NCBI GenBank assembly: GCA_027025175.1 | Contig: JALVRF010000127.1 | Span: forward strand, 16,140 to 80,139 | Length of the DNA stretch: 64,000 bases | Origin: Candidatus Aminicenantes bacterium | GTDB lineage: Bacteria; Acidobacteriota; Aminicenantia; S016-38 | Direction: 5' to 3' | Shown: in pieces, positions 2,545 to 58,456 of the stretch | Numbering within the stretch: position 1 is the first letter of the stretch | Layout of the letters: the number at the start of each line of letters is the position of its first letter | The notes under the pieces: model-generated | Told to the model about the DNA's origin: nothing | Seen by the model: the letters and a program-made list of their open reading frames with translations, nothing else | Database searches by the model: none | Program-made: the position numbers and the translations under genes

Positions 2545-2618
2545 CACGCCCGGAGGGACTCGAACCCCCAACCAACTGATTCGTAGTCAGCCGCTCTATC
2601 CAATTGAGCTACGGGCGC
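2545..2618 (-). tRNA. tRNA-Arg (anticodon ACG)
   Basis: Reverse complement folds as a cloverleaf: acceptor GCGCCCG/CGGGCGU, D-arm GCUC-AAUUGGAU-AGAGC, anticodon stem GCUGA/UCAGU with loop CU-ACG-AA, T-arm GGGGG-UUCGAGU-CCCUC. CCA is not encoded. Confidence 0.85.
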
Positions 2619-34483: not shown

Positions 34484-34556
34484 GGGCGGTTAGCTCAGGC
34501 GGGAGAGCGCTGGTTTCGCACGCCAGAGGTCAGGGGTTCGAATCCCCTACCGTCCA
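34484..34556 (+). tRNA. tRNA-Ala (anticodon CGC)
   Basis: Acceptor GGGCGGU/ACCGUCC with the G3:U70 alanine identity pair. Anticodon loop UU-CGC-AC. T-arm AGGGG-UUCGAAU-CCCCU. Confidence 0.85.
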
Positions 34557-38204: not shown

Positions 38205-38619
38205 ATACCAATCCAGATCAGAGGAGGAAACGAAAAAAATAGGGGAAGAACTGGCAAGAAGCCTCAGGGGGGATGAGGTGGTGCTAATATACGGTCCCCT
38301 GGCCAGCGGAAAAACCGTATTTGTAAAGGGGATGGCAAGGGGGCTGGGTATAGATGAAGCCCTGGTCTCCTCCCCCAGTTTCACCGTTATGAACATTTAC
38401 TCAGGGGAAAAACTCCTTTTCCACTTAGACCTTTACAGAACCCGGGAAAGGGAACTGGAATTTCTCGGAATTGAGGATTTTTTAGGCATGGGGGTTTTAG
38501 CAGTGGAATGGGGGGAAAAGGCAGAGGGCCAGCCCTGGGCCAGCCCGGCCGTTAAGGTTCGCATATTTCCCCGGGGAGAAGACCGGGTTATAAAGATAGA
38601 AAGGCAGGTGAACACTTGA
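38167..38619 (+). CDS. tsaE: tRNA threonylcarbamoyladenosine biosynthesis protein TsaE
   Basis: P-loop LIYGPLASGKT; conserved pairing with yjeF. Confidence 0.8.
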   Translation: MNTSQRPLRKMSEYQSRSEEETKKIGEELARSLRGDEVVLIYGPLASGKTVFVKGMARGLGIDEALVSSPSFTVMNIYSGEKLLFHLDLYRTRERELEFLGIEDFLGMGVLAVEWGEKAEGQPWASPAVKVRIFPRGEDRVIKIERQVNT

Positions 38620-38864
38620 TTTTATTGGGATTACTCATGTTTTTCGCCGCCGCTGGTCTATTTTTGTTTTCACTCCTTTTCCTCAAACCCTTCACCCGCA
38701 GGAGAAAAAAGACCCTCCGCTTTGCCTACCTTCTTTCCTTTGCCGCCTTAGTGGTGGTCCTTTTTTCCCGCAAATACCTTACTCCATTAATGGTGGCCTC
38801 CTTCCTTTCCCTGCTGCTCAGTTACATAGCCTGGGAAGTTTCCCTTTACTTCCTCAGGAAATAA
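38616..38864 (+). CDS. Small membrane protein (2 TM), unknown
   Basis: TTG start overlapping the tsaE stop; an ATG at 38637 is also possible. Confidence 0.35.
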   Translation: MILLGLLMFFAAAGLFLFSLLFLKPFTRRRKKTLRFAYLLSFAALVVVLFSRKYLTPLMVASFLSLLLSYIAWEVSLYFLRK

Positions 38865-40530
38865 TCTTTATCTTTAATTCCCTGAGCTGGGCAGGGTCCA
38901 CGCTGGAAGGCGCACCTGTGAGAAGACATAGGGCAGATGTGGTTTTGGGAAAGGCGATAACATCCCTTATGGACTGCTCCCCTGCCGCCATCATTACCAT
39001 CCGGTCAAAGCCAAAGGCTATACCCCCATGGGGAGGGGCCCCGTGTTCCAGGGCCTGGAGAAGGAAGGAAAACCTCTCCTCCTCAACTCCCAGGATTTTA
39101 AGAATTTTCCTCTGAAGTTCGGCCCTGTGAATCCTTATGCTTCCCCCTCCTATTTCCACACCGTTGACCACCAAGTCATAGGCCCTGGCCCTTACCTTAA
39201 GGGGTTCCGCCTCCAGAATTTCTATATCCTCTTCCCTGGGGGAGGTGAAGGGATGGTGGTTGGAACTTATTTTTCCATCCTCGTCCAGTTCAAAAAGGGG
39301 AAAATCCACAACCCATACCGGGGAAAAACCCTTCAACTCCACTCCCTTTATTTCCGCAACCCTTTTCCTCAAATATCCCATAAACTTCTCCACCCCCTTC
39401 CCTGCCATGAAAATGGCCCCATCTCTCATTTCCAGCCCAAGTTCCTCTGCTATCTTCCCCCTCCAGGACTCGTCCCCTCTTAGGCTCCCTGAAAATCCTC
39501 CATCGCCCCTCTTAAGGAAAAGTATTCCCGCCGCTCCCATGGATTTTATTTCCCGCTCCAGGGTCTCAATCTGTTTCCTGGAAAGTCCACCAGGAATTTT
39601 CATCCCTAGAAATTTTCCCCCCTTTTCCAGGGCTGAGGCCACTATTCTGTTGCTCCCTGACGGAAATCGGGAAAGGTTCTTTATCTCGTAGGGTATCCTG
39701 AGGTCCGGGGCATCGGTGCCGTATTTTTCCATGGCCTGGGTATAGGATAGGACAGGAATGGTGGAAGGAATCTCTATTCCAGCCCGGGAAAAACTCTGTC
39801 GCAAAATTCCCTCTGCCACTTCCATAACATCCCTCTCCTGCGCGAAGCTCATTTCCAGGTCAATCTGGGTAAATTCCGGCTGACGGTCAGCCCTCAGGTC
39901 CTCGTCCCTGAAGCAGCGGGCGAACTGGAAATACCTTTCAAAACCCGAAATCATTAGAATTTGCTTGAAAAGCTGGGGAGATTGGGGAAGGGCGTAAAAC
40001 CTTCCCGGGTAATTCCTGGATGGCACAAGAAAATCCCTGGCCCCCTCGGGGGTGGATTTCGTCAAAATTGGAGTCTCTATTTCCCAAAAACCCTGGGAAT
40101 CCAGATAATTCCTCACCGCCAGGGCCATCCTGTGGCGGAGGAGGAAGTTTCTCTGCATCCTGGGCCTTCTAAGATCAATGTAGCGGTAGCGGAGCCTTAC
40201 CTCCTCGCTGGCCTCAATCACATCGTTTACCGGAAAAGGAGGTGTTCTGGAGGTGTTAAGAACCCGAAATTCCTCCACCTCAACCTCCACTTCCCCTGTG
40301 GGAAGTTCGGAATTTTTGGCTTCCCTTTCCCGGACCTTTCCCTTTACCTCCAGGACCCACTCTGGCCTCACATTCCTGAGTCGGTCCCCCACAAGTTGAA
40401 CCACTCCGCTGCGGTCCCTCAGGTCAACGAAGACCACCCCCCCTAAGTCCCTCACCCTCTGAACCCAGCCCCGGAGGAGAACTCTTTTACCCTCGTCCTT
40501 TAATCTTAATGAGCCACACCAGGTTCTCAT
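38854..40530 (-). CDS. aspS: Aspartyl-tRNA synthetase
   Basis: OB-fold, class II motifs (FRDE, GGIAFGFDR). Start trimmed to MRTWCGSLR at 40530. Confidence 0.9.
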   Translation of the reverse strand: MRTWCGSLRLKDEGKRVLLRGWVQRVRDLGGVVFVDLRDRSGVVQLVGDRLRNVRPEWVLEVKGKVREREAKNSELPTGEVEVEVEEFRVLNTSRTPPFPVNDVIEASEEVRLRYRYIDLRRPRMQRNFLLRHRMALAVRNYLDSQGFWEIETPILTKSTPEGARDFLVPSRNYPGRFYALPQSPQLFKQILMISGFERYFQFARCFRDEDLRADRQPEFTQIDLEMSFAQERDVMEVAEGILRQSFSRAGIEIPSTIPVLSYTQAMEKYGTDAPDLRIPYEIKNLSRFPSGSNRIVASALEKGGKFLGMKIPGGLSRKQIETLEREIKSMGAAGILFLKRGDGGFSGSLRGDESWRGKIAEELGLEMRDGAIFMAGKGVEKFMGYLRKRVAEIKGVELKGFSPVWVVDFPLFELDEDGKISSNHHPFTSPREEDIEILEAEPLKVRARAYDLVVNGVEIGGGSIRIHRAELQRKILKILGVEEERFSFLLQALEHGAPPHGGIAFGFDRMVMMAAGEQSIRDVIAFPKTTSALCLLTGAPSSVDPAQLRELKIKIIS

Positions 40531-40697
40531 CTGATTATGTACATTATCCAACCGAAAAGGATAGAACCCACCACCATCCACAGGAAGGATTTGAGGGCGT
40601 AAACAAGCCTCTCCTTTTTAGTCTCCTTCCTTATAATGGCAAGGTCCAGGGAGGCGGGAATTGAGAAAAGAAGAAGAACTAAAAGATAACTTTTCAT
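40527..40697 (-). CDS. Unannotated 56-aa membrane peptide MKSYLLVLLLFSIPASLDLAIIRKETKKERLVYALKSFLWMVVGSILFGWIMYIIR
   Basis: Its ATG overlaps the upstream gene stop (ATGA) and its TGA overlaps the aspS ATG (ATGA). Two hydrophobic segments. Confidence 0.4.
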   Translation of the reverse strand: MKSYLLVLLLFSIPASLDLAIIRKETKKERLVYALKSFLWMVVGSILFGWIMYIIR

Positions 40698-41059
40698 TTT
40701 TTACTCAGAATTGAGCCCACCCTGGCGGTAGCCAGATAGTTTATTAAACCTCCCCCCATGAGGAAGAAGGTTCCGTAATCGCTGGTCCATGTAACCTTTA
40801 TTTGGCTTCCCAGGCCAAAAATCTTTCCAAGGAAAAAGAGGATGCCGTTTCCCAACTGGGAAAAGGTGAGAAAAACGGTAAGGGGAGAACCCTCATTGGG
40901 TCCCACGAACCTTCCTCCCAGCATTAAACCCACGGCGAAAAAATAAACTATGGAAAAGAAGATTATGAGTCCATCCCTTTTCCTGCCCAGGAGGTAGAAT
41001 CCAGCCCCGGGCACGAACCACGCTAAAAGGACATAAAGCCAGGCTCTTTTTTCTTCCAT
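40694..41059 (-). CDS. Small polytopic membrane protein (TM2/PspC-like GxGxxYxG motif)
   Basis: LLAWFVPGAGFYLLGRKRDG plus 3 TM segments. Confidence 0.45.
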   Translation of the reverse strand: MEEKRAWLYVLLAWFVPGAGFYLLGRKRDGLIIFFSIVYFFAVGLMLGGRFVGPNEGSPLTVFLTFSQLGNGILFFLGKIFGLGSQIKVTWTSDYGTFFLMGGGLINYLATARVGSILSKK

Positions 41060-41105
41060 TAGCCTTTAATATAAACAAAAATTGCCCTGTTTTCAAGAAA
41101 AAGGC

Positions 41106-41117: not shown

Positions 41118-42245
41118 ATGAATACCTGGGACGCAATCATAATTGGCGGTGGAATTATAGGTCTTTCCACCGGTTATTATCTTGCCAGGAACGGTAAAAA
41201 GGTTTTACTCCTGGAGCGTAGAGAACTGGGAGCCGGTTCCACAAGCCGATGTATAGGGGGAATAAGACAACAGTTCTCCACCCCGGGTTCCATCCGTTTA
41301 GCCATGAAGTCCGTGGAACTCTTTTCCCGCATGGAAGAAGAATTCGGTTTCTCGGTGGAGTTTGCTCAGACCGGTTATCTTTTCCTGATTTTTACCGAGG
41401 AGCAAAAAAGGCATTTCCTTGAGGTTATGCAATTACAGAAATCCTTGGGACTTGAAGTTTATTTCCTGGAAAAGAAGGATGTGGAAGAACTGGTGCCGGG
41501 AATTGACTCGCGGGACCTGATGGGCGGTGTTTACTCCCCCAAGGACGGTCAGGCTTATCCCTTTGCAGTGCTCAAGGGAATGGCAGAAGGGATAATGAGC
41601 CAGGGAGGGGAGGTAAAACGAAGAACAGAAGTGGTGGGAATAATCCAGGAAGGGGGAAGGGTAAAGGGGGTTCTTACGGGCCGGGGAGAAAAGTTCTACG
41701 CTCCTGTGGTTGTAAATGCTGCGGGTCCCTGGGCGAAGCAGGTGGGTCAGATGGCAGACGTTGAACTTCCCACTGAACCGGAAAGGCACGAGGCCTTCAT
41801 AACAGCGAGACTCCCCTACAGAAAAATACCCATGATAGTAGATTACAGGCCCGACGGTGGGTATTTTCAACAGAGGATAAACGGTCAGATAATAGGCTGC
41901 TATACCCCAAAGCCCAGGGTTCCGGGGCCCAGGGAGGACTCATCCTTTGAATTCATTGGGGAAATGAGTTACAGGATTGTCAGGGTAATACCCTGGCTGA
42001 AAAATTCTCTGGTTCTAAGGCAGTGGGCCGGAGCCTATACCATGACCCCGGACGGCAGTCCTATAATTGACGAGACGGAACTTGAGGGTTTCTTCGTGGC
42101 CGTGGGCATGAGCGGTCACGGTTTCATGTTCGGACCGGCTGTAGGATGGAGTCTTGCAGGGAAAATCGTCCAGGACGAATGGCCCTTACCCATGGAGGAG
42201 TTTTCCCTCAGGAGGGAGTTTTCTTCTGAGGAGGCTCTGAAATAA
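41118..42245 (+). CDS. FAD-dependent oxidoreductase (DAO family; glycine oxidase / sarcosine oxidase beta-like)
   Basis: [19 protein letters not shown] GxGxxG dinucleotide motif. Confidence 0.75.
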
Positions 42246-43230
42246 GGCCTAATTTAGCCCTGACCTTGTCCTCTATTTCCTTCAACAACTTCGGCTTTTC
42301 GGCCAGGAGTTTTTTCACATTCTCTCTGCCCTGCCCCAGCCTCTCTTTGTTGTAGGAATACCAGGATCCTGCCTTTTCCACAATTCCAGCGGAGACCGCA
42401 GCGTCAAGGACATCTCCTATCTTGTCAATACCCTTTCCGTAAATGAGTTCAAGAATGGCTTCCCTGAAGGGGGGAGCCAATTTGTTCTTCACCACCTTTA
42501 TCTTAACCAGATTTCCTATGGTCCTGTCTCCCTGTTTAATTGAAGTCTGCCTTCTGACCTCCACCCTGATGGAGGAGTAAAACTTAAGGGCTCTTCCTCC
42601 AGGGGTTGTCTCGGGATTACCGAACATTACCCCTATCTTTTCTCTTACCTGGTTTATAAAGATAAGGGCAGTGTTGGACTTGTTCACTATGCCGGCGAGT
42701 TTCCTCAGGGCCTGGCTCATGAGTCTGGCCATAAGCCCCATATGGGCATCTCCCATTTCACCTTCCAGTTCCGACTTGGGAACCAGGGCTGCCACCGAAT
42801 CCACCACGATTACATCGATAGCCCCGCTCCTTACGAGAATTTCAGCAATCTCCAGGGCCTGTTCCCCATAATCGGGCTGAGAAATCAAGAGGTCCTCCAC
42901 ATTTACCCCCAGAGAACGAGCATAATTGGGATCCAGAGCATGTTCGGCATCTATAAAGGCTGCCTTTCCTCCGAGTTTCTGGGCCTCTGCTATTACATGC
43001 AGAGCCAATGTGGTCTTTCCCGAGGATTCCTGACCGTATATCTCAGAAATTCTTCCCCTGGGAAAACCTCCTATCCCTAAGGCGGCGTCAAGACTTATAC
43101 TTCCAGAAGGTATTACGTCTATCTTGACATGGGCGCCCTTCTCGCCGAGTTTCATAATGGAACCCTTCCCGAAGGTCCTCTCTATGTAATCCATAGCCGC
43201 CCTGAGTTTCTTCTCCCTGTCCTGGTCCAT
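42208..43230 (-). CDS. recA: Recombinase RecA
   Basis: [22 protein letters not shown], and the loop L1/L2 regions. Confidence 0.95.
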
Positions 43231-43231
43231 C

Positions 43232-45544
43232 TTACCCTCCTAAGATTTTCTTGGTAATTAATTTAAGTTCCCCAAGAGCCTCCCCGGCACTCTGGAATCT
43301 CTTGCCCCTTTCCTTCTCCAGGCATTTCATGATAAAACGATCCAGGGATTCAGGAATGCCCGGGCGATATGTTGAAGGGGGGAGAGGGGACTCTTCTATA
43401 TGTTTTTTCATAACCTCAACCCTGTCCTTTCCCAGAAATGGAGGCCTGCTGGCCAGAAGGTGGTAAAGGGTTGCCCCTGCGGAATAAATGTCGCTCCTTT
43501 CGTCTACCGTAGAGCCCATGCATTGCTCCGGCGACATATAAAAGGGAGTACCGGATATCTTGCCCTTCTCCTTTTCTATTTCGGATGCCAGAACAGCAAG
43601 GCCGAAGTCCATAACCTTTAATTTCTTATCCTTGGTGAGCATTATGTTCTGTGGCTTTATGTCCCTGTGAATTACACCGTTCCTGTGGGCATATTGAAGT
43701 GCCGAGAAAAGCTTTGAAGCCACGAAAAGAACCTGTTTTATGGTAAATTTTCCCTTTTCCTTAAGGTAATCCAGAAGGGTTTTACCTTCAATATATTCCA
43801 TAGCAATAAAGTAGCGGTCGTTAAATTTTCCCACATCGTATATTATCACTATGTTGGGATGGGAAAGTTTGGCAGCGGTTTTTGCCTCAGCCAGGAATCT
43901 CTCTATGGCCCTCTTGTTGAGGTCCAGTTCCTTTTTAAGAAGTTTAAGGGCTACGGTCCTGTTGAGAACAGTATCCTCTGCCTTGTAAACAGAGCCCATT
44001 CCTCCCTTCCCTATAAGGGCGATGATTCTGTATCTCTTCTGAGGCTGGGAAGTCTTCTCCTCAAGTTCCTTCAACTTGTTAACTGCCTGGGCTAACTTTT
44101 GCATCCTTTCCTTGGCATCAAGATAGTTTATGTCAAGGCTGCTTACTGATTTGAACATTTTATAGGCTTCCTGATATCTACCCTGTGCTTCCGCTATAAG
44201 TCCCAGAAAATAATATATGTCCAGGTTTGACTTGGATATGGGTTCCCCCTTAAGGGCGATTTTAAACCTCTCTTCTGCAAGTTCGTATTCCTTTTTGTCC
44301 AGGAATAGTTTTCCCAGCATAAAACTGGCTCTTTCAAATTCAGGATCCTGCCTCTCCACCTTCTGGAGATTCTCTATGGCTAATTCCTCATCTCCAAGGT
44401 AATAATAGGCTATGGAACCGGCCTGGAACCAGTTTCTCCCCTTCCTGAACATGGACTCTGCCCTGCGATATAATTCATCCTTTTTACCACTATCAATTTC
44501 TTTGTCAGCCATTTCTTTGAGAATTTCCCCTGCCTTTGAGAATTCGCCGGCCTTCTCAAAGGCAAACAGGGCTTTGTCAGGTTGCCCGGCCAACCTATAA
44601 AGTTCCCCTGCCTTGTTCCAGAGGCCATCTTTAGAGTAGCATTCGGCCGCCTTTTTCAATTCACCGTTCCATTCGTAGAGTTCTGCAGCCCTGCCGTAAT
44701 CCCCTGCAAGTTCAAAGTGTTCTGCTGCTTTAAGGTGCTGGCCCTCACTGAGATAATATTCACCCAGCAACATATTAGCCTTTCCATGTTCTCCAGATTT
44801 CTTGTATAGTTCGGCTGCCTTTTCAAATAAGCCTGCTTCCTCATATTCCCGGGCTGCCTCGGTAAAATTTCCTTTTCTGTTCAGAATTTCCGCTGCCTTA
44901 TCGTGCCATTTAACCTTCCTGGCCAGGGAAAGTGCCTTTTCCACATTTCCGGCCTGTTCATAAAGATCAATGGCCTTCTGAAGTGCAATCCGGGCCGATG
45001 GTTTTAACTCCCTGGCGTCGAGGAAAATCTGATCCACCCAGTTCTCAAAGCACCATGCGGCCTTATCGGGCTTCCCCGCCTTTTCATAGCACACCCCTGC
45101 CCGATCCAGCAATCCTATGGATTCGTAAAGGGAGGCGGCTCTTTCCCATATACCGTGCTTTTCGAGAAGTTGAGCCGCTTCCTGTCGTCTGCCAACATCC
45201 TCATAGGTCTGGGCTGCTTTTTTAACGTCCTTGAGTTCGTTCAGATAAATTCTGACCGCCATTTCATAATCGCCGCTCTCCTGGTACAGGGCCGCAGCTT
45301 TTTTTAGCATCCCATTTTCTTCGTACATGGAGGCTGCTTCGCTTAGCAATCCTGCTTTTCTGTACATTTCCTCCGCTTTCTCCAGCATTCCAAGTTCTCT
45401 ATAATGGGAGGCGGCGTCCTGATATCTTTCCTCTTTTTCTGACCTTTTAGCTGCCCTTAATTTGGCCTCTTTTTTTCCAAAGAAAAAACCAACCAGTTTC
45501 TCTATCCCCTTAAGATCTCCGGTTTTTTCTTCCCTTTCTGGCAA
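43232..45544 (-). CDS. Ser/Thr protein kinase with an N-terminal TPR/Sel1-like repeat array
   Basis: Kinase subdomains [33 protein letters not shown] in the C-terminal half; about 12 TPR-like repeats in the N-terminal half. TTG start with GGAGG RBS. Confidence 0.8.
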
Positions 45545-55554: not shown

Positions 55555-58400
55555 AGTGTTCCCTGTGTGGGCGAGAAAATCCGGAAGGCAGGTTTACCTG
55601 TAAGTTCTGCGGATTTCCCCTGAGGAGCATAGATAATCTTCCTCCGGGGGAAATATTAAAGGGAAGGTTTAAAATCCTGAGTTTTCTGGGCAAAGGTGGA
55701 ATGGGGGTGATATACAGGGCAATGGACCTCAAACTTAACAGGGTTGTAGCCGTTAAAATCCTCCCCCTGGAACTTAAGGCAGATGAAAAGGCCAGGAAGA
55801 GGTTTCTCAGGGAAGCTCAGGCAGCAGCAAGACTGGAGCACCCCAACATATGCACCATCCACGAAATTTACGAAAGCGACGACATAGACTTTATAGTTAT
55901 GCCGTACATAGAGGGGGAAAATCTTCAGAGAGTTCTGAGGAACAAGGGGCCTTTTTCCCTGGAGGAATTTCTCCATTACGCCAGGCAGATGGCCTCTGCC
56001 CTCTCAGCGGCCCACAACAAGGGGATTATCCACCGGGATATAAAACCCTCTAACATAATGATCACCAGGGAAGGCCTGGTAAAGATTCTTGATTTTGGAC
56101 TGGCGAAATTTACTGGAGCAGAGGAATCCCTCACCTCTGCCGATGTGGTGGTGGGAACCCTGGCTTACATGTCCCCGGAACAATGCCGGGGGGAAAAATT
56201 AACCCCTGCTTCGGATGTTTTTTCCATGGGAATAGTCTTCTACGAGATGCTCACAGGTGAAAATCCCTTCCGGGGAGAAGATACTGGCTCCACATTCTAC
56301 AAATTACTTCACGAGGACCCTCCCCCTCCTTCCCATAAAAAGCAATTGCCTCCGGAACTGGACAGGGTGTTAATGAAGGCCCTGGAAAAGGAGCCCTCTA
56401 AAAGGTACAGGGATGGAGGGGAACTCCTGAAGGCCCTGAGCGAGATTAGGGGAGATGGGACCCTGGAACTCCAGCCCACCATGGTTACCCCGGCCCCGCC
56501 ATCAAAGAAGGAAAGACGGAGTAGAAGATTTCTCTTTCTATCTGGATTAGCCCTTCTTATTGTCATCGCGGCAGGAGGGGTCTTTGCCCTCCTGAATTCC
56601 AATCACCATCCCCGCTCTGTGGTCATAAGGGATTTTCTCGGGGGAGCAGGAGTCTCAAGCGATGCGGTAAAGGCAGTTTCCTTCCTCCTGAAGAAAAAAC
56701 TTCTTCTCCTTCAGGATGTTACGGTCATAGACGAGGGAACATTCGTGGACCTGCGGAAAAGGTACAGCCTGGAACAATTATTTAAAAAGTTCAGGGTTAT
56801 AGGAATAATCTCCGGTAGCATAAAGAAATACGGGAAAATGGTGAGCCTTGAAGCCTCTCTTTCCAAGGGAGGAGAAAATTTTCCCATAACCATCTCCGGG
56901 GAAGGGGAGGGGTCAATTCTTCAGTTTCAGGTGGATTCCCTGGGTGAAAAACTGGCCTTGCTTCTTTCCCTGAAGTTTAGAAGAAAAGCAAAGGTAAGCG
57001 CCCTCACCACAGAGGATTATTCAGCACTTATTTCTTATATAAAAGCCAGGGAAGAATGGGAGAAGTTATCGGTCTCAAATGCTAGAAAATATCTCCTGAC
57101 GGCCCTCAGGCGGGATCATGAATTCCCCCTGGCCCATTTTCTCTATGCCAAGGTTCTGGTGTTTCTGGACAGGATAGATGAGGCAAAAAAACAGGTGAAA
57201 CTTGCCCTGGCCGGCAGAGATAGAATGCTGGACCTGGACCTCTGGAGGGCTGAGGCATTAAAAGCAGAGCTCCACATGAAATTCAAGGAAAAAATAAGGT
57301 TTCTGGAAAGGGTAAGGGAAATGGCTCCCTACGATAAACACTCCTATTATGACCTGGCAGAGGCCTATTTCCACCGGGCCTCCCCCAGAAGGGCAATAAC
57401 TTATTATGAGAAGGCCTTGCAGTTGAAGGCCGACTATCTTCCAGTCCTCAATCACCTGGGTTATTGTTATCTTTACATAGGGGAGCATCTTAAGGGGATC
57501 CAGTATTTCGAAAAATACAAACTGCTTAGCGGAGAGGCCAATGCCTTTGATTCTCTGGGGGATGGATATTTCTATTCAGGGAATTACCTGGAAGCCATCA
57601 CCAGCAAGGAAACCGCCTTAGAGAAGGACCCTACCCTCACCTGGATTTATCACAGTTTGGCCTATATTCTTTTCATAAAAGGGGATATATCCAGGGCCTT
57701 CAATTATAATTCCCTCTACCTTTCCAGGGTAAGGGACAAAAAATCCATGGCCAGGGGATATATGCAGAGGGCCTATTTCAAATTGGAACTGGGCCGCCTG
57801 GGAGCTGAGGCAGACATCCGCAAAGCCATCTCCACTTTTGATCCCAGGGAGCCCCATATTTTAATACCGGAACTTCACTGGATAGCCCTTCAGATTTATA
57901 TAAGGGAAGGGAAAATAAAGGAAGCCTGCGAGCACCTCAAGTGGATGGAAAAGGTGGTGAGGGAATACTCTGTAAACCAGGAAAATTATTTCCCTATTTA
58001 CAAATATTACCTCCACGGGAAAGCCGAATGTTTACTCGCCAGAGGCGACAGGAGGGGACTTACCTATTACGAAAAACTCATGAAAATCAAAGAAAAACTC
58101 GGGTACTGGGCAACCCCCTTTGAACGGGGATTCTTTACAGGAAAAAAGGCCCTGGCGGAGATAAAGATGGGAAAATTGTCCGGCGCGGAGATAAGCCTCA
58201 GAGATGGTTTCTCCTACAATCCCAATCATCCACTTCTTCTCCTGGCCAGAATTTTTCTTCTCAAAAAGGAGGGGAAATTTGAGGAGGCCAGAAGAAGAAC
58301 TGAAGAACTTTTAAGTTTCTATCGTTCCTATCCTCCGGCGGACAGGGACTTCCTCAACATTGTCAAGGAGAAAATAAAGAAAGCGCCTGGGGGGATTTGA
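55551..58400 (+). CDS. Ser/Thr protein kinase: N-terminal zinc-ribbon, kinase domain, one TM helix, C-terminal TPR array
   Basis: CSLCGREN...CKFCGF; GKGGMGVIYRA, VAVK, HRDIKPSNIMI, DFG, SPEQ; a hydrophobic stretch at about aa 330; TPR repeats after that. Confidence 0.8.
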   Translation: MKCSLCGRENPEGRFTCKFCGFPLRSIDNLPPGEILKGRFKILSFLGKGGMGVIYRAMDLKLNRVVAVKILPLELKADEKARKRFLREAQAAARLEHPNICTIHEIYESDDIDFIVMPYIEGENLQRVLRNKGPFSLEEFLHYARQMASALSAAHNKGIIHRDIKPSNIMITREGLVKILDFGLAKFTGAEESLTSADVVVGTLAYMSPEQCRGEKLTPASDVFSMGIVFYEMLTGENPFRGEDTGSTFYKLLHEDPPPPSHKKQLPPELDRVLMKALEKEPSKRYRDGGELLKALSEIRGDGTLELQPTMVTPAPPSKKERRSRRFLFLSGLALLIVIAAGGVFALLNSNHHPRSVVIRDFLGGAGVSSDAVKAVSFLLKKKLLLLQDVTVIDEGTFVDLRKRYSLEQLFKKFRVIGIISGSIKKYGKMVSLEASLSKGGENFPITISGEGEGSILQFQVDSLGEKLALLLSLKFRRKAKVSALTTEDYSALISYIKAREEWEKLSVSNARKYLLTALRRDHEFPLAHFLYAKVLVFLDRIDEAKKQVKLALAGRDRMLDLDLWRAEALKAELHMKFKEKIRFLERVREMAPYDKHSYYDLAEAYFHRASPRRAITYYEKALQLKADYLPVLNHLGYCYLYIGEHLKGIQYFEKYKLLSGEANAFDSLGDGYFYSGNYLEAITSKETALEKDPTLTWIYHSLAYILFIKGDISRAFNYNSLYLSRVRDKKSMARGYMQRAYFKLELGRLGAEADIRKAISTFDPREPHILIPELHWIALQIYIREGKIKEACEHLKWMEKVVREYSVNQENYFPIYKYYLHGKAECLLARGDRRGLTYYEKLMKIKEKLGYWATPFERGFFTGKKALAEIKMGKLSGAEISLRDGFSYNPNHPLLLLARIFLLKKEGKFEEARRRTEELLSFYRSYPPADRDFLNIVKEKIKKAPGGI

Positions 58401-58456
58401 ACCCCCGGCCTTCGGCTCCGGAGGCCGACGCTCTGTCCAGCTGAGCTACAGGCGCC
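58382..58456 (-). tRNA. tRNA-Arg (anticodon CCG)
   Basis: Reverse complement gives D-arm GCUC-AGCUGGAC-AGAGC, anticodon stem UCGGC/GCCGA with loop CU-CCG-GA, T-arm GGGGG-UUCAAAU-CCCCC. The exact acceptor ends are uncertain to about 1 nt. Confidence 0.8.

Follow-up and report, generated by a model that had tools for sequence, protein, structure and literature searches.

A candidate partner for the orphan family DUF6677: small two-helix membrane proteins encoded beside it in Acidobacteriota

Very short hydrophobic subunits are encoded beside their larger membrane partners in several bacterial systems, among them CydX with cytochrome bd (CydAB) and KdpF with KdpABC; annotation frequently passes over such genes or gives them no name. 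Short open reading frames (ORFs) can also precede aminoacyl-tRNA synthetase genes: in E. coli, pheM, a leader of about 14 codons that is rich in the cognate amino acid, stands before pheST and is followed by an attenuator. Coupling of neighboring genes through an ATGA stop/start overlap is, in turn, common in compact bacterial operons. Here we analyze a locus that can be compared with each of these. It lies in a stretch of 64,000 nucleotides (nt), called the window throughout, from Candidatus Aminicenantes bacterium (GenBank assembly GCA_027025175.1, contig JALVRF010000127.1, positions 16,140 to 80,139 of the forward strand). Three genes follow one another on the minus strand of the window: one for a membrane protein of 121 amino acids (aa) of family DUF6677 (Pfam PF20382), an ORF of 56 aa, and aspS. 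The organism belongs to the Acidobacteriota, a poorly characterized group whose members rank among the most abundant bacteria of soils and sediments. Our comparisons indicate that the 56-aa ORF belongs to a new small-protein family, lacking a Pfam model and strictly paired with DUF6677 across this phylum.

Like CydX and KdpF, the 56-aa protein is short and hydrophobic, and it adjoins a larger membrane partner with which it would be co-translated. CydX and KdpF, however, each have a single transmembrane (TM) helix and accompany large enzymes or transporters whose function is known; the protein described here has two predicted helices and a DUF6677 partner of about four, and it is the arrangement of the genes that suggests an interaction. 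DUF6677 is an uncharacterized bacterial membrane family of which the 121-aa protein is a clear member, and it is the invariant upstream neighbor of the small ORF. The Pfam entry covers the larger protein only, whereas the 55–62-aa partner has neither a Pfam nor an NCBIfam model. The likeness to pheM is that of a short ORF directly upstream of a synthetase gene and on the same transcript, but the small ORF has 56 codons, with a single Asp codon, no attenuator was found at the locus, and its family also stands upstream of unrelated genes.

We compared the small ORF in seven related Candidatus Aminicenantes genomes, all metagenome-assembled, which represent the source lineage. The initial annotation had proposed that the ORF is translated, on the grounds that it overlaps both of its neighbors, and had suggested a comparison of the region upstream of aspS in relatives. 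This comparison gave a clear result: the frame is kept, the homologs are all exactly 56 aa long and 77–89% identical, 33 of the 56 columns are invariant, and both overlapping junctions are present in 7/7 genomes. In six genomes, the pairwise ratio of nonsynonymous to synonymous substitution rates (dN/dS, Nei-Gojobori) was 0.05–0.12 with near-saturated synonymous sites, and the differences at codon positions three, one and two numbered 418, 145 and 69. These values bear directly on the idea that the ORF is a chance open frame in the spacer between DUF6677 and aspS, with no functional product. Its shortness, its hydrophobicity and the lack of any Pfam or NCBIfam match (a scan returned only sub-threshold noise from transporter families) would suit that idea, as would the fact that 4-bp overlaps are common in this genome; the low dN/dS at saturated synonymous sites, the constant length and the invariant columns would not. 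An overlapping RNA or antisense element, which might have been the source of the conservation, was not found in an Rfam scan.

Further evidence against a chance frame came from the breadth of the family, which was defined in this analysis as the DUF6677-associated small-protein family and has no database model. Grouped at 90% identity, the matches of a profile search of a word-indexed database made up 584 clusters. HMMER, run exhaustively against 1.84 billion representatives, returned 389 clusters (50% identity) at E ≤1e-3 and 71 at ≤1e-10, nearly all of them 55–65 aa long. No Pfam domain is recorded for family members, and the three distant homologs that we scanned gave only noise against Pfam and NCBIfam. 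Because transmembrane composition can fake similarity, the relationship was tested in both directions with hidden Markov models (HMMs). Against an HMM built without the Aminicenantes clade, the window ORF scored 48.3 bits, compared with 14.4 for the best of 5,000 composition-matched shuffles, and no other ORF of the window matched. Conversely, an HMM made from the seven Aminicenantes sequences alone recovered, at 21–42 bits, the ORFs that had been identified by position in nine other loci. On these comparative data we consider the chance-frame explanation already refuted, with a probability close to nil.

The 56-aa ORF thus encodes a real protein, and it is purifying selection together with family membership, more than the overlaps, that leads us to this view. 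In this respect the proposal of the initial annotation holds for its outcome more than for its main argument, since the overlaps that it relied on are possible at many gene pairs of the window (see below). Its description of the ORF as unannotated needs correction: the exact 56-aa sequence is already called as a gene in the NCBI, JGI/IMG, ENA and Logan gene sets (P0287; L102-L104), where it has no name or family. Uncharacterized and family-less is the fairer term. Some relatives have been misnamed automatically, as cytochrome bd subunit 2, heme A synthase, Na+/H+-dicarboxylate symporter or PulO-like peptidase.

AlphaFold2 models the 56-aa protein as a two-helix hairpin, with helices at residues 2-23 and 27-55 and a predicted local distance difference test (pLDDT) score of 82, and the hydropathy profile agrees with two TM segments. 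The family as a whole has the same layout: an N-terminal hydrophobic helix, a basic loop of the form K/R-x(2-4)-(R/K)-(E/D)-R-h-x-(Y/F), and a second helix that ends in (G/A)-W-x-M. In the window protein the core motifs read RKETKKERLVY and GWIMY. Its basic loop, RKETKKER, is presumably cytoplasmic by the positive-inside rule. The ORF shares the four features by which we recognize the family, namely a length of 55-62 aa, a two-TM hairpin, the sequence core, and a position directly downstream of DUF6677 on the same strand. All organism names met on family members are acidobacterial, comprising Aminicenantes, Acidobacteriaceae, Bryobacteraceae, Thermoanaerobaculia and Candidatus Acidiferrales.

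The partner is unambiguous. The 121-aa protein matches DUF6677 at 83.9 bits (cutoff 24.3) over model positions 2-105 of 116; it is an integral membrane protein with about four TM helices, modeled by AlphaFold2 as all-helical (pLDDT 88.8), and its homologs were found at 31–91% identity. A motif near its N terminus, W-x-x-P-G-x-G-(H/F)-x-x-x-G, may resemble the TM2 domain (PF05154), but DUF6677 was the sole family listed by hmmscan at E up to 1. No paper mentioning DUF6677 or PF20382 was found in the literature searched, and we found no relatives of known structure or function for either this protein or the 56-aa protein.

We then asked how constant the association is. Scanning metagenomes with the 60/61-aa sub-clades gave 437 confirmed loci, 80 of which were returned and examined. 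Upstream sequence of 300 nt or more was available for 71 metagenome loci, and in all 71 (70 by an automatic filter and L023 by inspection) DUF6677 lay directly upstream of the small ORF, its gene ending within a few bases of the small-ORF start. The divergent sub-clades (L096-L098, L099-L101 and L105-L106) have the same arrangement. The converse look-up, starting from DUF6677, gave the same answer: in 5/5 distant members, the DUF6677 gene is directly followed by the small ORF. They include DUF6677 genes at 31–38% identity on unrelated contigs, each with an unassigned ORF of 56–62 aa right behind it. Two apparent fusions were also found among public protein clusters, P0269, which joins DUF6677 to the small protein, and P0283, which joins the small protein to the UPF0004 domain of a MiaB-like protein. 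Each has an arginine-rich out-of-frame linker and was rejected as a true fusion; the two are most likely frameshift errors in GC-rich assemblies, although they still confirm the adjacency. Together, these results point to DUF6677 and the small protein as the conserved unit, obligate genomic partners throughout the Acidobacteriota. In the loci sampled, this orphan family is never alone: its obligate partner of 55–62 aa is one for which the databases hold no model.

The three window genes appear to form one tightly packed transcription unit, as the initial annotation had suggested (Table 1). Direct reading of the sequence and of the ORF list places the two ATGA overlaps exactly where it had described them, the first at 40697..40694, between DUF6677 and the small ORF, and the second where the TGA of the small ORF meets the ATG of aspS. 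Both junctions keep the form NTGA in the compared genomes, as ATGA/ATGA in six and GTGA/ATGA in L009. There is nothing unusual in this coupling, which we read from the sequence: a chance test showed that a 4-bp overlap is possible at 9 of the 41 same-strand gene pairs of the window, so double coupling is typical of real neighbors here and is weak evidence when taken alone. At the far end of the unit, a convergent gene overlaps the 3' end of aspS, which makes aspS its last gene.

The other end of the unit has a promoter-like element, in the 58-nt gap between the DUF6677 ATG and a divergently transcribed gene for a FAD-dependent oxidoreductase. The string CTTGAAA...GTTTATATT is invariant in the seven genomes, whereas the flanking intergenic bases diverge and the DUF6677 start codon is ATG or GTG. 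The -10 box, at 41073..41068, ends 8 nt before the ATG in the window and 6-8 nt before the start codon across the genomes, implying that the leader of the DUF6677 mRNA is very short or absent; the message may be leaderless or nearly so. In two relatives (P0009 and P0010, 126 aa), DUF6677 has been called from a TTG inside the -10 box, probably a miscall.

The third gene is a standard aspartate--tRNA ligase. It matches the NCBIfam models NF001750 at 719 bits (cutoff 443) and TIGR00459 at 660 bits (cutoff 374), and its Pfam domains, tRNA_anti-codon (OB fold), tRNA-synt_2 (class II core) and GAD, are the usual bacterial set. Its start is the ATG at 40530. The protein that begins there, AspRS, starts with MRTWCGSLRLKD, and the NCBIfam models align from its residues 3-4; moreover, MR(T/R)xCGxL after the ATG is conserved among the seven genomes. 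An alternative in-frame GTG at 40581, 17 codons upstream, was rejected, as the extension peptide is not conserved; in the stretch between the GTG and the ATG, substitutions fall on third codon positions of the small ORF (148, versus 58 and 32). A start elsewhere, which the initial annotation had considered, is therefore not what we found.

In all seven genomes, the 17 nt upstream of the aspS ATG lack a Shine-Dalgarno (SD)-like core. Before the small ORF, by comparison, GGAGG occurs in several relatives and only GAG in the window. The missing motif, the position of the small ORF directly upstream of aspS, its overlap with the aspS start and the hydrophobic segments that it encodes could all be accommodated if it were a regulatory leader peptide, an upstream ORF tuning aspS by sensing either the supply of Asp-tRNA, like attenuation leaders, or, in the manner of SecM and MifM, membrane insertion. 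We think this very unlikely. The small ORF has one Asp codon, no Asn codon and no stretch of cognate codons. The count of terminator-like sites shows no excess (8 found versus 7.0 expected) and none stands out at the gene junctions, and an Rfam scan of the whole 64-kb window gave no element in the operon region, its only matches at the gathering threshold being three tRNAs elsewhere. The protein is also conserved over its full length, and the family precedes genes as unrelated as those for a MiaB-like protein, lpxB, recO, adh_short and VanZ. What is constant is the upstream partner, DUF6677, rather than the gene that follows.

The same variety of downstream genes bears on the linkage to aspS, which the initial annotation had singled out as unusual. 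When we searched with the window AspRS by tblastn, aspS was found beside the pair only in the Aminicenantes loci L001-L010 and L102-103; it was absent from 95/95 loci of other lineages, many of them short, which lowers the power of this negative for some. There the pair is followed instead by genes for MiaB-like proteins, lpxB-msbA, recO-lptFG, adh_short or VanZ. The linkage is thus not the notable feature that it first seemed. A functional tie to AspRS in this lineage, in which the pair would, for example, anchor the synthetase, or a pathway that depends on tRNA, at the membrane, could draw on the retention of the arrangement and of both overlaps in seven genomes whose AspRS proteins are only 64–91% identical, and on the fact that the MiaB-like protein, encoded downstream in the largest other clade, is also tRNA-related. 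Yet conservation within one clade is expected from inherited gene order anyway, the domains of AspRS are those usual in bacteria, without an additional membrane-binding region, and lpxB, recO, adh_short and VanZ are unrelated to tRNA. We think such a tie very unlikely. With aspS behind the pair in the Aminicenantes clade alone (0/95 loci elsewhere), its adjacency is best read as a chance outcome of gene order, confined to one lineage and inherited within the clade.

These results suggest the following model, to which we assign a probability of roughly 80%: an operon that includes a real membrane protein partner of DUF6677, the two forming a two-subunit complex, with aspS co-transcribed and coupled behind them. 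Transcription of the three genes would begin at the conserved promoter-like element just upstream of DUF6677. The overlapping stop and start codons would help to make DUF6677 and the 56-aa protein in matched amounts, and the 56-aa hairpin and its partner of about four helices would assemble into one small heteromeric complex of the inner membrane. aspS, co-transcribed without a ribosome-binding site of its own, would probably be translated by ribosomes that, after finishing the small ORF, reinitiate 1 nt upstream; functionally, it would be separate from the pair, having simply landed behind this module in the Aminicenantes lineage.

Several observations weigh against this model or narrow its reach. 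SD-like cores precede only about 40% of the first-ATG starts in the window, compared with 22% of random positions, so the SD-less start of aspS fits termination-reinitiation without proving it. There is no genuine gene fusion of DUF6677 with the small protein among the 150 matches listed. Most of the co-occurrence sample comes from a single clade (80 loci, 60-aa type), with one to three loci from each of the others, and the acidobacterial range is that of the organism names met on family members. A different role for the pair would be that of an Acidobacteriota-specific module that gates translation of the essential gene behind it, be this aspS, the MiaB-like gene, lpxB or recO. If so, the overlaps would let the downstream gene be expressed only when the small protein had been successfully made and inserted into the membrane, and the pair would be a portable checkpoint of membrane status and not only a structural complex; we give this idea very little credence.

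The definition of the pair has practical value. It gives curators a new small-protein family to model and experimentalists a two-gene unit to delete or purify jointly. It also removes a false lead, as the synthetase linkage appears to reflect the inherited gene order of one clade and gives no sign of new aminoacyl-tRNA synthetase biology.

Table 1. Coordinates and composition of the operon, other window features, and the surroundings of the pair in other lineages
Feature	Sequence	Position	Strand	Description
Gene 1	Window	40694..41059	minus	121-aa ORF of family DUF6677 (PF20382); TGA at 40696..40694
Gene 2	Window	40527..40697	minus	56-aa ORF, predicted two-helix hairpin membrane protein; ATG at 40697..40695, TGA at 40529..40527
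Gene 3 (aspS)	Window	38854..40530	minus	Bacterial-type aspartate--tRNA ligase, 558 aa; ATG at 40530..40528
Promoter-like element	Window	41068..41096	minus	TTGAAA-17 nt-TATATT; consensus scan, 10/12 matches
Hydrophobic ORF	Window	38616-38864	plus	82 aa; no Pfam match
FAD-dependent oxidoreductase gene	Window	41118-42245	plus	
recA	Window	43230..42208	minus	
TPR + Ser/Thr-kinase gene	Window	45544..43232	minus	770 aa
tRNA genes (three)	Window	2545-2618, 34484-34556, 58382-58455		Sole Rfam matches
Neighbors of pair	60-aa clade			MiaB-like radical-SAM enzyme downstream in 41/69 loci; nucleoside-hydrolase-like gene upstream in 33/63
Operon with pair	L013	3495-7555		HIT - pair - lpxB - msbA - DUF374; 4-bp overlap at each of the four junctions from HIT to msbA
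Neighbors of pair	L015			recO-lptFG downstream
Neighbors of pair	L096			Short-chain dehydrogenase (adh_short) and radC downstream
Neighbors of pair	L099	102-1150		VanZ-like protein downstream
Neighbors of pair	L107	2491-4040		DUF2085 upstream, VanZ-like protein downstream
Neighbors of pair	L108	592-1661		DUF2085 upstream

In other Acidobacteriota, genes for further small membrane proteins recur beside the pair, DUF2085 upstream and VanZ-like proteins downstream. The recurrence of lpxB-msbA, lptFG, VanZ and DUF2085 among its neighbors hints weakly at the cell envelope. A cluster of 17 minus-strand ORFs that seemed to lie downstream of the pair in metagenome loci had no Pfam match; these were taken as antisense ORFs across GC-rich MiaB-like genes and set aside.

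Two further arrangements in the vicinity of the operon deserve mention. On its oxidoreductase side, recA follows the kinase gene with a 1-nt gap, and its 3' end overlaps that of the convergent oxidoreductase gene by 38 nt; this arrangement recurs in L001-L004. At the other end, the TTG start of the 82-aa hydrophobic ORF overlaps the tsaE stop codon (TTGA), and the ORF converges on aspS, with whose 3' end it shares 11 nt. An 82-aa gene has been called at this position in L001 and L004, and L009 has a longer, 117-aa version; the ORF may be another conserved small membrane protein.

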